Notes under the pieces: generated by a model | Databases searched by the model: none | Told to the model about the DNA's origin: nothing | What the model saw: only the letters and a program-made list of their open reading frames with translations | Part shown: one piece after another, positions 7,062-41,294 of the stretch | Layout: every line of letters starts with the position of its first letter | Position numbering within the stretch: the first letter of the stretch is position 1 | Source: Escherichia phage vB_EcoM_OE5505 | Sequence record: NC_054926.1 | Length of the DNA: 64,000 bases | Strand: one strand, 5' to 3' | Position numbers and translations under genes: made by a program

Positions 7062-7331
7062 TTATCTAAGTAAGCAGTATGCTTGGAACACTTTCTCCAT
7101 CATCTTTTTAAATTCATGAATATCTATATAATGACTAGTTAAATCAGCATGATATAAAAAGTCTAAAAACTTTTCATGTGTGCTAACATATTCACTTTCA
7201 TTTAATTCAGAAACATGACTTTCCCAATATCCAACACCAGTCTTATTTGGGAAAAATGAAATTTTCATGTATTGGTCAACATAGAAAATGCCATAATTTT
7301 CAATAGTAATAGAAATATTAATAAATTTCAT
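7062..7331 (-). CDS. Hypothetical protein (89 aa)
   Basis: ATG start; ATGA overlap with upstream small ORF. Confidence 0.5.
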   Translation of the reverse strand: MKFINISITIENYGIFYVDQYMKISFFPNKTGVGYWESHVSELNESEYVSTHEKFLDFLYHADLTSHYIDIHEFKKMMEKVFQAYCLLR

Positions 7332-7546
7332 ACATTCATCAACTTAGCCGCTTCAAGAGCTGCATCTAGTGAATCAAATTGGTCAACATATTCAATCAAT
7401 TCGCCGTAATTGGCATATAAACCACCATTGGCTAAATTCATACTCAAGGATGAATCCGTTTCCTTCAATTTGAGTTAAACCAATGCCATTTGTATTTACT
7501 TCATATCCAGCAAGACGCAAATCGTTAATAAGAGCTTCGTTCATAA

Positions 7547-31527: not shown

Positions 31528-32001
31528 TTATTTGAACGATTTAACGTACTGAATAGAACCTTTACTATTTACAAAGGCAATTTTACCATTTTTATTATAC
31601 ATTGTAGCAGTACGTTGATAGCCATAAGTTTGTTTACCAGATTGATAACCAACTAATGCAAAATTATCTTCACCCATTTTATTCTGTTTAGCGCGAATGC
31701 GTTCATGACCATGTGCCATAAGAACCTTAGCATCACCAGTTGCAATGGATCGACGAGTTTTTTCATCTTCAACTGTATTAACAAAGTCGTCAAATGAATC
31801 AAATTTAGCATGAGATTTATTATACAGTTTTCCATCTACTGCATAATTATATCCCTGTACATCCATCTCAACTTCTGTACCATCATCCAATACAGCAGTA
31901 ATTTTTTGACCTTTTTTAAATTTCAAAAGATCAGTAAAAGATTCAGCAATAATTTGAGAATTAATAGCTGCTTCAGTGATAAATTCTTGATATGTTTTCA
32001 T
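31528..32001 (-). CDS. Internal (capsid-targeted) protein, ipIII-position (157 aa)
   Basis: N-terminal capsid targeting sequence MKTYQEFITEA; located immediately upstream of e as ipIII is in T4; early promoter 32056..32085. Confidence 0.7.
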   Translation of the reverse strand: MKTYQEFITEAAINSQIIAESFTDLLKFKKGQKITAVLDDGTEVEMDVQGYNYAVDGKLYNKSHAKFDSFDDFVNTVEDEKTRRSIATGDAKVLMAHGHERIRAKQNKMGEDNFALVGYQSGKQTYGYQRTATMYNKNGKIAFVNSKGSIQYVKSFK

Positions 32002-36060: not shown

Positions 36061-36079
36061 CCCTATCATTTAGATAGGG
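36061..36079 (-). terminator. Rho-independent terminator (CCCUAUC-UAAAU-GAUAGGG + U5)
   Basis: 7-bp stem followed by CTTTTTGG on minus strand. Confidence 0.55.
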
Positions 36080-36087
36080 ATTTAAAA

Positions 36088-36650
36088 TTATTTACCTAGT
36101 TTACTTATTATAGCTTCTGCAGCAGCTTTTAGCTTAGATGCAGTGTTAATACGATTTTTAATTTCAGTATACGCATCGCCAAGAACATCAAGGCTATCAG
36201 AATAAACACTTACACTATTGCGTTCGCTATTTGAAATAGAACCTTTAGTTTTGCGGTCAAAATCGGTGTACACGTCTTGAAGATCGCGGGCTGCCTTCTT
36301 TGCATCATCCAATGCATCAAGAGCTTTATTCAAAGCATTAACGTATTTTTAGTGTCGAACATATTCTTAGAAATTTTAACAGGTGCGCGTTCAGGAGTAG
36401 CTAACACAGATTTAGGAACCTGAGCGCCAGATGCCAATTTCTTAGAAATTTTGAAAAATGCTTTATTGAATTTATTTTCTTGACTCATTGTAAAAGAACT
36501 ATTATCGATGTTGTACATTTCAATAGCTTTAGCTTTCCACTTAAGAAAATCGCCGCGGTCTTTTGGGTCCAATTGGAAGAATACTTTAGTAAGATCTGCT
36601 TCAGATGGTAATTTTGCTGCTTCGGTTAAAAATTCGGCATAGGTTTTCAT
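36088..36650 (-). pseudogene. Internal-protein-like gene with capsid-targeting leader, apparently split by a frameshift at an A5 run (ORFs 36330..36650 and 36088..36333)
   Basis: N-terminal part starts MKTYAEFLTEAAK (ATG 36650); downstream ORF has no ATG (TTG only); adding one A at 36336..36340 fuses both into a ~186 aa protein. Confidence 0.45.
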
Positions 36651-36745
36651 TTAAAATCCTTGAAATAATTTATCGGTTGGTTATTAATTATTTATTACTT
36701 TGTTACTATCCGTAACAGCGTTATCCGAGTGATTCAAACTAAAAA

Positions 36746-36767
36746 GCCCCAACCTTTCGGTCGGGGC
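36746..36767 (-). terminator. Rho-independent terminator (GCCCCGACC-GAAA-GGUUGGGGC + U5), copy 1
   Basis: 9-bp stem with GAAA loop then TTTTT; identical to copy at 37304..37325. Confidence 0.7.
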
Positions 36768-36775
36768 TAAGAATG

Positions 36776-37250
36776 TCATTTGATTTGTTTAGCAGACCAA
36801 ATGCGGTCTTTAATAATTTTTTGGATGTCTTCAACATACTCAAGAGAGTGAACATGTGGATTATCTTTGAAACTATAAGCACGGGCTAACTTTTGGCCTT
36901 CGGTTTTGATTACTAAAAGCTCTTTAAGGATAGCTTCATATTTAGCGATAATTCCTTTAACGATATTTTTTTCTTGTGCCGCTTTAGGATCTGCTTTAGG
37001 AGCAGGTTTACCCGAAGCCTTTGCAAAAGCAGCGCCAGTAGCAACTAAACTTTTCCAGGCCATACTAACTGCATTTCCCGTAAATCCTTCCGCTTTCATG
37101 TCGCGTGCAAACTGGAATCGCGATTCATCAGAAGCATCTTTATAGGAATAATTTACCCGCGGCAATGGCAGCTTTTGCAACAGCTTGAATTTCGGTGCTA
37201 GATGCTTCATTTAACACCGCTTCATTTAAAAATTGAGTATATGATTTCAT
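36776..37250 (-). pseudogene. Internal-protein-like gene with capsid-targeting leader, apparently frameshifted (N-terminal 36 aa ORF 37140..37250 plus 36776..37210 in another frame)
   Basis: ATG 37250 with AGGAAA SD and late promoter TATAAATA; MKSYTQFLNEAVLNEAS...; removing 1 nt near 37145..37162 gives ~157 aa continuous protein. Confidence 0.4.
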
Positions 37251-37288: not shown

Positions 37289-37296
37289 TATTTATA
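37289..37296 (-). promoter_or_regulatory. Late promoter TATAAATA upstream of internal-protein-like gene
   Basis: Exact TATAAATA on minus strand directly after terminator hairpin. Confidence 0.6.
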
Positions 37297-37303
37297 CCAA
37301 AAA

Positions 37304-37325
37304 GCCCCAACCTTTCGGTCGGGGC
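37304..37325 (-). terminator. Rho-independent terminator (GCCCCGACC-GAAA-GGUUGGGGC + U5), copy 2
   Basis: Identical hairpin, followed by TTTTTGG and late promoter. Confidence 0.7.
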
Positions 37326-37334
37326 TAAGCCTTG

Positions 37335-37620
37335 CGGCAACCTTGTCGGGGTTCCACCTGCTAAGGCAAGTGTTTGTACGAAACGCCGGGATTCGAACCC
37401 GGTTATTAAGTAGTTGACGCTACTCAATATTTTTAAAAGGCCATATCTCGACCATATCCGAACGTTCCGTCAAAAACGCTACTCGGCTTACGGCAAAGAT
37501 ATTTCCTCGAATCGATAATTCGGTGCGCCGTTTCTGCTGTGATAGTAAAGAGCCAGAACACAGTAAAACTGTGGGAGGAAACTATACTCCAGGGAACATC
37601 AGTCCGACGACTTACCGGTA
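37335..37620 (-). ncRNA. Putative small stable RNA region (tRNA-like element; possibly analogous to T4 RNA C/D)
   Basis: No protein-coding ORF; contains tRNA T-arm-like CCGGGTTCGAATCCCGG but no canonical cloverleaf; flanked by tRNA cluster and strong terminator 37304..37325. Confidence 0.3.
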
Positions 37621-37633
37621 GCGACCCGGTTTC

Positions 37634-37984
37634 TTAATATTCTTTTAAAGAATCAATATATTCACGGCGTTTACGCCACAAATCAATTGCTTCATACGCG
37701 GATTCAGCATTTCGAATTAGCCGGCATTTATGTAAAGACTTATGATTTTGATATTGTGTAGATAACGGAATTGTATCTAAAAGGTCTTTACGATCAAAAT
37801 ATTCGTAACCATCTAAACCAAATGAACGATTTTTGAGAAATTGCCAATGACCATATTCGTTTTCGACATAAACATAATCTGCATGCTGATAAAGCAAATT
37901 AATTACACGTTCAGAAATAACAGTATCATTATGATTAAAATAGAATGTTAAATCATGAACTACTAAATAAACATTACCTTTCAT
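37634..37984 (-). CDS. Hypothetical protein (116 aa) immediately downstream of tRNA-Arg
   Basis: ATG 37984 with GAGGAAA SD. Confidence 0.5.
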   Translation of the reverse strand: MKGNVYLVVHDLTFYFNHNDTVISERVINLLYQHADYVYVENEYGHWQFLKNRSFGLDGYEYFDRKDLLDTIPLSTQYQNHKSLHKCRLIRNAESAYEAIDLWRKRREYIDSLKEY

Positions 37985-38002: not shown

Positions 38003-38078
38003 TGGTCGAGGCAGTAGGGATCGAACCTACGACCTAGGACTTAGAAGGTCCTTGCTCTTCCTTCTGAGCTATGCCCCG
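38003..38078 (-). tRNA. tRNA-Arg (anticodon UCU), CCA encoded
   Basis: Manual cloverleaf: acceptor CGGGGCA/TGCCTCG, anticodon stem AGGAC/GTCCT, loop CTTCTAA, T-loop GGTTCGATCC. Confidence 0.85.
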
Positions 38079-38082
38079 TAAT

Positions 38083-38158
38083 TGGGGTGACCGATGGGAG
38101 TCGAACCCATGACTACGAGAATCACAATCTCGAGTTCTACCAACTGAACTACGGCCAC
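38083..38158 (-). tRNA. tRNA-His (anticodon GUG), CCA encoded
   Basis: Acceptor GTGGCCG/CGGTCAC, anticodon stem CGAGA/TCTCG loop TTGTGAT, discriminator C73, T-loop GGTTCGACTCC. Confidence 0.8.
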
Positions 38159-38272
38159 ATTAATACCTACTCCAACAATCAAGATGTCTTCACACGAAAT
38201 TAAGAGAAGAGTGATCAGTTCAACCCCTATAATCGCGTCAAGTAGATATTAATGTGACAGTTGTCACAAATT

Positions 38273-38347
38273 TGGCGGACGTGATAGGATTCGAACCTAT
38301 AACCAATCGCTTAACAGGCGATCGCTCTGCCATTGAGCTACACATCC
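38273..38347 (-). tRNA. tRNA-Asn (anticodon GUU), CCA encoded
   Basis: Acceptor GGATGTG/CACGTCC, anticodon stem ATCGC/GCGAT loop CTGTTAA, T-loop GGTTCGAATCC. Confidence 0.8.
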
Positions 38348-38351
38348 AAAT

Positions 38352-38438
38352 TGGTGGGGAGTGGTGGAGTCGAACCACCCGAGTCGCAATGACAATGGAT
38401 TTACAGTCCACACCGCTACCTCTACGGGATAACTCCCC
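38352..38438 (-). tRNA. tRNA-Tyr (anticodon GUA), long variable arm, CCA encoded
   Basis: Anticodon loop CTGTAAA; long extra arm; T-loop GGTTCGACTCC; acceptor GGGGAGT/ACTCCCC. Confidence 0.8.
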
Positions 38439-38447
38439 AAATTAATT

Positions 38448-38522
38448 TGGTGGCCCTGGGTGGAATTGAACCACCATCTGGCGATTATGAGTCGCTTGCT
38501 TGAACCTTCCAGCTACAGGGCC
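38448..38522 (-). tRNA. tRNA with CAU anticodon (elongator Met or Ile2), CCA encoded
   Basis: Acceptor GGCCCTG/CAGGGCC fully paired; anticodon loop CTCATAA; T-arm GGTGG TTCAATT CCACC. Confidence 0.75.
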
Positions 38523-38531
38523 AAATTTTTC

Positions 38532-39014
38532 TTATTTTATGTAATATTTATTTAAAAACTTTCTAGCTTGAGTATGGCTAACATTTATAGCGTTTGCATA
38601 ATTTTTAATAAAACCTCGTTCATCCATATTAAAATTTTCTAATATTTTTAATCGTCTAATTATCTCATCTTGGCTTAAGGTACTTGCATTATTTTTAGAA
38701 ATTTTTTCTAAAGACTGCACTGAGTGTTTTCGACCATTAAAATTAAAATTTTTAGGTTTTGGAGGAAATCTATCATTTAGTCTCGCATCTTTTGTATTTT
38801 GATTATTAGTTGCGCAATATATGTTATTTAATGAGTATGGTCCTTTATCACCAAAACGACACATACAGTATTCATGACCCTTTCTTCCACGCTTATCATA
38901 ATTTCCTGTTGATTTCCACCAATTTAACCACTCATCAAAAGTTAAATTCCATTCAATGTTTCTACGTATAGCAGAATTCCGCTGAGAAATATATTTTGCA
39001 TAATCTTCTTTCAT
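38532..39014 (-). CDS. Putative homing endonuclease-like protein with C-terminal HTH (160 aa)
   Basis: Inserted between tRNA genes; Cys/His-rich core GHEYCMCRFGDKGPYSLNNIYCATNN; C-terminal AINVSHTQARKFL resembles HTH of neighbouring HNH protein. Confidence 0.45.
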   Translation of the reverse strand: MKEDYAKYISQRNSAIRRNIEWNLTFDEWLNWWKSTGNYDKRGRKGHEYCMCRFGDKGPYSLNNIYCATNNQNTKDARLNDRFPPKPKNFNFNGRKHSVQSLEKISKNNASTLSQDEIIRRLKILENFNMDERGFIKNYANAINVSHTQARKFLNKYYIK

Positions 39015-39061
39015 CACAAATTTCTCTACTTATTACATGCACTAAGCTAAATCAGCAAAAC

Positions 39062-39151
39062 TGGCGGAGGCGATAGGATTTGAACCTATGAGTCGCCGGA
39101 GCGACTGCCGGTTTTCAAGACCGGTGCATTAAACCACTCTGCCACGCCTCC
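39062..39151 (-). tRNA. tRNA-Ser (anticodon UGA), long variable arm, CCA encoded
   Basis: Acceptor GGAGGCG/CGCCTCC, anticodon stem CCGGT/ACCGG loop CTTGAAA, long extra arm, T-loop GGTTCAAATCC. Confidence 0.85.
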
Positions 39152-39153
39152 AG

Positions 39154-39227
39154 TCTCCATACAAGGATTTGAACCTTGGACCTCCTGATCCCAAATCAGG
39201 CGCTCTACCAAACTGAGCTACACGGAG
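39154..39227 (-). tRNA. tRNA-Pro (anticodon UGG), CCA not encoded
   Basis: Anticodon stem CCTGA/TCAGG loop TTTGGGA; T-loop GGTTCAAATCC; 3' end directly abuts tRNA-Ser. Confidence 0.8.
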
Positions 39228-39237
39228 TAAATTAAAT

Positions 39238-39311
<74 letters not shown>

Positions 39312-39316
39312 AAATT

Positions 39317-39403
39317 TGGTGCGAGAAGTGGGACTCGAACCCACAAGGAAATCATTCCGCAGCATTTTAAGTGCTGTGCCTTTACCAATTTGACCATTCT
39401 CGC
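39317..39403 (-). tRNA. tRNA-Leu (anticodon UAA), long variable arm, CCA encoded
   Basis: Acceptor GCGAGAA/TTCTCGC, anticodon stem CAGCA/TGCTG loop CTTAAAA, T-loop GGTTCGAGTCC. Confidence 0.85.
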
Positions 39404-41060: not shown

Positions 41061-41294
41061 TTATTTTTTACGAAAAATTGATTTATTTTCTGCTGCCCAT
41101 TTTTCAATAACTGCAGCAGGACCAGTAACAACAATTTTATCACCGTAATCTTCTGCGGCGAGTTGACCGAAATTATCTAATGCATCACGAAGAACTCCAT
41201 GAGGCATTTCACCCATTTTATCTTTCTTGCCAGTGTAAATAAACTCAACTTTTACATCAGCAGTTTCAGCAATAAATTCTTGGTAAGTTTTCAT
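41061..41294 (-). CDS. Internal protein I-like (capsid-targeted), 77 aa from MKTYQEFIAE
   Basis: Canonical capsid targeting sequence MKTYQEFIAE at ATG 41294; early promoter 41329..41358. Confidence 0.7.
   Translation of the reverse strand: MKTYQEFIAETADVKVEFIYTGKKDKMGEMPHGVLRDALDNFGQLAAEDYGDKIVVTGPAAVIEKWAAENKSIFRKK

Follow-up and report, generated by a model that had tools for sequence, protein, structure and literature searches.

Two adjacent internal-protein-like genes, each interrupted by a one-base indel, in Escherichia phage vB_EcoM_OE5505

The genome of Escherichia phage vB_EcoM_OE5505 (sequence record NC_054926.1) contains two adjacent genes of the internal-protein (Ip) type, here called gene A and gene B, whose reading frames are each interrupted by the gain or loss of a single nucleotide (nt). 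This locus raises the question of whether the phage has lost both genes, whether its sequence carries two residual errors, or whether the interrupted frames are still in use, either through frameshifting or as separate proteins. The window analysed here is a stretch of 64,000 nt of this record, in which the locus occupies positions 36,088 to 37,250. OE5505 is a Tequatrovirus from surface water in Braunschweig, with a genome of 168,756 bp (accession MK373785) sequenced at 74x coverage. The phage collection was searched without OE5505's own record, and the closest 24-kb match to the window shows 98.7% identity. The two indels, private to this phage, are probably genuine loss-of-function alleles of dispensable injected-protein genes, with no recoding involved.

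The two breaks and the intact genes

Both genes lie on the minus strand, and the elements that define the two breaks are listed here, with a slash marking the protease site in the signals:

37140..37250, minus strand: 5' fragment of gene A, 36 codons and a stop, with the signal MKSYTQFLNE/A; residues 1-33 are 100% identical to the orthologue of 157 amino acids (aa)
37150..37151, minus strand: inserted T of gene A, TT as against a single T in the relatives, placed by alignment with them
36776..37149, minus strand: 3' part of gene A, residues 34-157 of the orthologue and the stop, now in the +1 frame
36330..36650, minus strand: 5' fragment of gene B, 106 codons and a stop, with the signal MKTYAEFLTE/A; residues 1-101 are 100% identical to the 187-aa orthologue
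36346..36350, minus strand: A5 tract of gene B (Lys-Lys codons), the frameshifting deletion; A6 in the intact relatives, A7 or A10 in other broken alleles
36088..36345, minus strand: 3' part of gene B, residues 102-187 of the orthologue and the stop, out of frame

In the relatives, each gene is a single annotated coding sequence, of 157 aa for gene A and 187 aa for gene B. The 1601 nt around the two genes are matched by 722 phage records, and the top 27 listed are 99.9% identical over the full length. Over this segment, the window differs from phages DalCa, fPS-90 and UAB_60 by exactly two one-base indels and by no substitution. The comparison with orthologues, proposed as a check in an initial annotation made from the letters alone, therefore reveals continuous open reading frames (ORFs) in related phages and one indel per gene here.

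In gene A, base-by-base alignment to the same three phages gives AAATTATT in the window and AAATATT in the relatives. A T is gained at codon 34 and translation stops after 36 aa, while the annotation of the source genome gives the 3' part as a 144-aa ORF (36776-37210), which begins with an ATG in another frame at 37210. In gene B, one A is lost from the A6 Lys-Lys tract at codons 101-102, leading to a stop after 106 aa, and the 3' part is annotated as a TTG-start ORF of 81 aa (36088-36333, minus strand). Repair of one base in either gene yields the protein of the relatives, with 100% identity in both halves.

Much of this had been read correctly in the initial annotation: the end of the 37250 gene after 36 aa (its stop lies at 37140), its continuation in another frame as the ORF 36776..37210, which the ORF translation bears out, and the end of the 36650 gene after 106 aa, followed in another frame by the ORF 36088..36333 with no ATG. 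The single nucleotide whose removal was predicted near 37145..37162 to restore gene A is the extra T at 37150/37151. Three details had to be amended. The run to be lengthened in gene B had been placed at 36336..36340, where the letters read TAATG; adding one A does repair the gene, but the run lies 10 nt away, at 36346-36350, and the fused product has 187 aa and not about 186. Furthermore, both breaks had been attributed to short homopolymers, which holds for gene B but not for gene A, where a single T became TT.

The consequences differ between the two genes. Only about 26 residues of the 36-aa product would be left after removal of the signal, so the gene A allele of OE5505 is effectively null. 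For the intact gene B protein, an AlphaFold model was used for coarse layout alone, given its low confidence (predicted local distance difference test, pLDDT, 59; predicted template modelling score, pTM, 0.30). In this model, the protein appears to begin with a helical part, followed by a disordered linker (residues ~76-98) and, from residue 100, by two long helices that form a C-terminal hairpin; the break would then spare everything up to and including the linker, with the signal, and remove the whole C-terminal part. A length variant of the intact protein also exists: in phages ph0021 and PsgM02F (L021/L022), as in several protein clusters, gene B is annotated with 188 aa instead of 187, the added residue being a Leu in the linker (...KQVLPKS...), with an unchanged A-tract.

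The rarity of the two broken alleles was assessed with queries of 71 nt centred on each indel. Perfect matches to the broken allele were found in 0 of 194 records for gene A and 0 of 139 for gene B, and all matches listed for both queries carry the intact allele. The same type of query on the two nearest intergenic indels returned perfect matches in 36 and 19 records, which indicates that the method works and that these two neighbours are polymorphisms of the ordinary kind. In IMG/VR, scans by exact pattern also failed to find either broken allele, with two matches for each of the intact-allele positive controls; the broken allele of gene A was absent from the JGI metagenomes, and that of gene B from the GTDB genomes, by exact pattern. 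A contig look-up did not find the 106-aa product elsewhere.

The quality of the assembly was examined by mapping the ORFs of two relatives (at least 60 aa, from the first Met) back on the 64 kb. The full-length ORFs numbered 237, and three were split between frames: gene A, gene B and a 71-aa gene at 7331-7544. None of the large genes among the ORFs tested is broken in the 64 kb. Around 36% of the window consists of essential genes, and the probability that all three indels miss them is about 0.26, a value that does not separate error from mutation.

The third split gene (7331-7544, minus strand; Pfam DUF5495) has an extra base at 7419 that changes GGTGGTTATATG to GGTGGTTTATATG and leaves fragments of 50 aa and 46 aa. 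None of 497 isolate records has this allele, but it recurs with every base identical in the Logan contig SRR31313013_53 (run SRR31313013), which comes from a different T-even phage with 97.3% identity over 3.15 kb. Consequently, at least one of the three frameshifts is real and inherited.

Internal-protein class of genes A and B

The capsid-targeting motif of T-even Ips comprises about 10 residues that end at the prohead-protease site (L/I-x-E, then A). The N-termini of both genes match this motif, which reads MKTYQEFIAE/A in T4 IpII and IpIII, and an N-terminus of this kind is found in only four ORFs of the 64 kb: genes A and B, 41061-41294 and 31528-32001. The last two, both on the minus strand and of 77 aa and 157 aa, are intact and match the 'internal virion protein' PHROGs 8111 and 3155, respectively; the window thus holds four Ip-class genes, two of them broken. 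Upstream of gene A there is also a late-promoter sequence:

37289..37296, minus strand: exact T4 late-promoter consensus TATAAATA; fPS-90 has 'predicted late promoter' as the annotation of the homologous site

Presence is variable among close relatives, the gene A site being matched in 194 records and the gene B site in 139, and truncated alleles occur in viable isolates. Taken together, signal, promoter and dispensability support the assignment of genes A and B to the T-even Ip class, with packaging predicted from the signal; the term 'internal-protein-like' of the initial annotation is in line with this motif and with the predicted late promoter of gene A.

Beyond the signal, the two proteins stand apart from the characterized Ips. 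No homology to T4 Ip1, Ip2 or Ip3 was detected in the alignment past approximately residue 11. Both align full-length with PHROG 2280 ('unknown function'), whereas the T4 proteins belong to PHROGs 4363, 7857 and 5341. The intact proteins have no Pfam match above the cut-offs, and the protein homology search returned close Tequatrovirus relatives only (10 clusters, nine of them at 88-98% identity). When the A and B proteins are compared pairwise, their likeness is confined to the 11-residue signal.

The comparison of genes A and B with the T4 Ips is based on motif and context. Common to A, B and T4 Ip1 (IPI*), Ip2 and Ip3 is the signal MK(T/S)Y..F(I/L).E/A. Like the other T-even Ips, genes A and B lie in a putative late-gene context, are small, non-essential and patchy between close relatives, and belong to a set of several per genome in variable regions near the tRNA/rnaC cluster. 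They differ from T4 Ip1-3 in their PHROGs, in occupying a locus (between rnaC and e.8) that is empty in T4, and in that both are truncated in OE5505. T4 Ip1, Ip2 and Ip3 are reported to be inhibitors with a single specific target each, a restriction enzyme of the GmrSD type, and at least 10 further Ips are known only by their signal (Silas et al. 2025, PMC12373910). By analogy with T4 Ip1-3, which act on GmrSD variants, an anti-defence role may be proposed for A and B.

On this basis, the following pathway can be put forward for the intact proteins of the relatives (157 aa and 187 aa). They would be made late in infection, and the 11-residue N-terminal capsid-targeting sequence would bring each of them into the prohead, where the prohead protease would cleave after ...F-L-x-E. 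The cleaved protein would then be packaged alongside the DNA and, once injected into another host cell, would probably disarm one particular form of a defence, for example a restriction enzyme of the GmrSD type, as the T4 proteins do.

Recurrent breakage and the origin of the two alleles

The same pair of genes is broken in other genomes. Unlike the other fragments, the 81-aa C-terminal fragment of gene B is present on other contigs, in eight places from eight samples (L011-L018) that comprise ENA metagenome re-assemblies, one Logan run and one E. coli assembly; since they were found through this fragment, the sampling is biased to broken gene B. In all eight, gene B is split at the same tract as in OE5505, with A7 in seven (on two single-nucleotide polymorphism, SNP, backgrounds) and A10 in one, giving products of 104/105 aa and 81 aa. 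Two separately conserved ORFs in related phages had been contemplated in the initial annotation as evidence against broken genes; a split gene B does occur in these eight contigs, but with tracts of A7 or A10, and the different tract lengths among the split alleles point to recurrent breakage and not to a conserved two-ORF design.

Gene A breaks elsewhere at a tract of its own:

36966..36972, minus strand: poly-A tract of gene A, A7 in frame (GAA AAA AAT) here and in most relatives; A8 or A9 elsewhere truncates the protein

Runs of A7/T7 number only four in the 64 kb, one of them in gene A, and runs of A6/T6 number 53. An A8 tract in gene A occurs in L011 and L012 and in the isolates ph0021 and PsgM02F and leads to a 97-aa product, the same truncated product that is annotated in phages G28 and T4_ev240. 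In fPS-65 the tract is A9 and the product has 112 aa. One haplotype carries a synonymous G that interrupts the run (AGAAAAA), a stabilised variant.

A further type of loss involves the terminator hairpins around gene A:

37298..37329, minus strand: terminator hairpin, copy 1 (stem-loop 37326-37303), within a direct repeat of ~32 bp; annotated terminator in DalCa and fPS-90
36740..36771, minus strand: terminator hairpin, copy 2 (stem-loop 36768-36745), identical to copy 1; second repeat arm bounding gene A

In L013 (GCA_021543435.1, DAFNHL010000111.1), gene A is missing exactly between the two identical ~32-bp terminators, and this absence may reflect a deletion or an insertion, in either direction. 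Mobile regulatory cassettes reportedly mediate modular shuffling in T4-type genomes. The likeness lies in short repeated regulatory elements that flank an accessory gene and coincide with its presence or absence, as in L013; the difference is that the repeated element here is a ~32-bp terminator hairpin and not a promoter/stem-loop cassette.

Altogether, at least seven independent inactivating events by distinct alleles can be recognized at the locus: A5, A7 and A10 in gene B, A8 and A9 in gene A, the T insertion of the window and the repeat-bounded deletion. Neither gene is intact in the window, L011, L012 or L013, the last with gene A gone and gene B at A7. This association of A-loss with B-loss may serve as a lead and not as a result, because the sampling is biased to broken gene B.

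Tract lengths were also followed in isolates and in unbiased collections. The exact 73-nt A7 haplotype of gene B was not found in isolates, where 158 records match the site and the 30 rows listed are all A6, although the identity bands leave room for an A7 allele with a SNP among the rows beyond those 30. For gene A, every A8 or A9 tract recovered by the isolate queries came with one additional SNP or base. The broken A7 and A10 alleles of gene B are seen only in metagenome, Logan and bacterial-assembly contigs, a contrast that may mean little under biased sampling. An unbiased scan of tract length gave two contigs in the JGI metagenomes, both A6, and none in the GTDB genomes, too few for frequencies.

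A-runs are spontaneous frameshift hot spots in T4, as exemplified by the rII hot spots and the slipped-mispairing model of Streisinger. The locus resembles them in the gain or loss of one base in an A6/A7 run of a dispensable T-even gene and in the variation of tract length between genomes (A5/6/7/10 in B, A7/8/9 in A). It differs in that the variation described here is natural, in wild and isolate genomes and not in laboratory mutants, and in that the gene A break of the window lies off the run.

How, then, did the two alleles of OE5505 arise? As stated, they are probably genuine losses: the indels would be in the phage DNA itself rather than in the assembly only, and that of gene B would have arisen by replication slippage at its A-run. 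Such losses would be tolerated because proteins of this type are dispensable on hosts without the matching defence. The principal alternative is a sequencing or assembly error, in which the phage would have intact genes of 157 aa and 187 aa and the consensus would carry two residual one-base indels; this is possible but doubtful. Several observations count in its favour and, with them, against genuine loss. Both alleles are unique to the OE5505 record in every collection searched, and the 106-aa and 144-aa products are exact only in OE5505 among ~15 billion proteins, that is, they are singletons. Indels without substitutions relative to 27 near-identical records have the look of residual consensus errors, and the gene B indel is a one-base homopolymer contraction. 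In the source paper each phage was sequenced by PacBio RSII/HGAP3 or by Illumina MiSeq/SPAdes, with the platform of OE5505 unstated, and a PacBio-only consensus of DNA with glucosylated hydroxymethylcytosine could leave such indels. Moreover, the proximity of two of the three ORF-breaking indels (~800 nt) has a chance of about 0.02-0.08, only mildly unlikely. Genuine loss is nevertheless favoured because the sister frameshift at 7419 was verified independently, in the read set of a different phage, because both indels fall in adjacent dispensable genes of one class, and because breaks in these genes recur in other phages, in one of the two at the same tract. For random errors to be the cause, they must have struck two neighbouring genes of one class, both independently known to break in nature. 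In addition, the gene A change from a single T to TT is no homopolymer miscall, the coverage is 74x, no large tested gene is broken in the window, and the neighbouring indels are natural polymorphisms shared with other phages.

The remaining explanations assign a function to the interrupted frames. Translational frameshifting had been listed as an option in the initial annotation, and the full-length proteins could in principle be made by programmed frameshifting (+1 in A; -1 or +2 in B) or by transcriptional slippage. The gene B site is an A-run read by a shift-prone tRNA-Lys, and a rare +2 slip there (AAA to AAA) could bring the frame back at the cost of one Lys, but there is no sign of programming. 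The two-frame arrangement is not conserved, since the listed relatives have a single ORF and perfect matches are lacking among the 194 and 139 records; the sites ACT AAA AAT ACG (B) and GGT AAA TTA TTC (A) lack an X XXY YYZ heptamer or a shifty stop; and the gene A site (AAA TTA TTC) is free of rare codons and of stops prone to shifting. RNA segments of 83 nt that begin at each shift site fold no better than shuffles (z = -0.9 and -0.7). The longer tracts of other genomes (A8-A10) could permit some RNA-polymerase slippage, but A5 is far too short for it, and recoding is thus scarcely credible. The use of the fragments as separate proteins, especially the 106-aa N-terminal and 81-aa C-terminal ORFs of gene B, is very unlikely as well. 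It could appeal to the split gene B of 104/105 aa and 81 aa in eight other contigs and to the position of the break at the boundary between the disordered linker and the C-terminal helical hairpin, where, if the low-confidence model (pLDDT 59) holds, the N-terminal fragment could fold and still be packaged. However, the split-allele tracts differ (A5, A7, A10) and encode different junction peptides, as repeated accidents would; the 81-aa ORF has a TTG start and neither a Shine-Dalgarno sequence nor a targeting signal; and the 36-aa product of gene A is little more than a cleaved signal.

A more speculative view, which we consider improbable, is that the poly-A tracts of A and B act as on/off switches, making the locus a bet-hedging contingency locus in a virulent phage. 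Slippage of the phage polymerase would keep protein-made and protein-not-made variants in every lysate, the proteins being kept when the host has the defence that they block and shed when they are sensed by the host or useless. If so, the joint loss of A and B in the window, L011/L012 and L013 would imply a joint action of the two proteins or their joint sensing. Simple-sequence contingency loci are similar in that the length of a coding homopolymer differs between strains and toggles the frame, in genes that face host defences; the length variation compared here is that between genomes. They are dissimilar in that the tracts here have only 6-7 nt, as expected from AAA Lys codons at 35% GC.

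With genuine loss as the preferred reading, the breaks themselves are ordinary gene decay or, failing that, sequencing error, and the recurrent tract-based decay of an Ip-like gene pair is a modest side result. In terms of annotation, the three 'hypothetical proteins' of the locus (81, 106 and 144 aa) are pieces of two genes of the Ip class, to be marked as disrupted or, should the reads disagree, corrected. The comparison places the two-gene locus among the most breakable spots of Tequatrovirus genomes. Such frequent loss, combined with the activity of Ips as variant-specific inhibitors of type IV restriction, would single out the A/B family as a good candidate anti-defence factor of narrow spectrum, and also as a candidate host-range marker in therapeutic T4-like phages.

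Setting of the locus

Genes A and B lie just downstream of a tRNA cluster (38003-39403) and of an rnaC-like gene, and the locus is framed by two further elements:

37377..37515, minus strand: rnaC-like small stable RNA gene, near-identical to T4 rnaC in an alignment of the rnaD/rnaC region; directly upstream of the locus
36061..36079, minus strand: third, different terminator hairpin, which closes the locus

No Rfam family matches the rnaC-like RNA (37377-37515). In the T4 annotation, rnaC and e.8 are adjacent without any gene between them, so the locus is missing from T4; genes A and B are an accessory pair inserted into this interval, with the rnaC-like RNA gene on one side and the e.8 homologue on the other.

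The hairpin sequence AGCCCCGACCGAAAGGTTGGGGCT occurs at both 37326-37303 and 36768-36745, which bears out the identical terminator that the initial annotation had seen before both genes. Its further suggestion of a duplicated cassette stands for the ~32-bp terminator and the 11-aa signal and not for the remainder of the proteins, which are alike at the N-terminus alone. Upstream of gene B only AATAAATA is found, a 7/8 match to the late consensus at 36696-36689. The expression of gene B may therefore depend on read-through.

Two other ORFs were observed upstream of the locus. In T4, tRNA-Arg is followed directly by rnaD; in OE5505 a 116-aa ORF (37634-37984, minus strand) takes that place, and the alignment over rnaD is poor. 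Within the tRNA cluster, a GTG-start ORF of 161 aa (38532-39017, minus strand) occupies the interval between tRNA-Met and tRNA-Ser. In some relatives the same interval holds a tRNA-Thr, and in T4 the homing endonuclease gene segB is nearby; this ORF may be a mobile insert of the endonuclease type.

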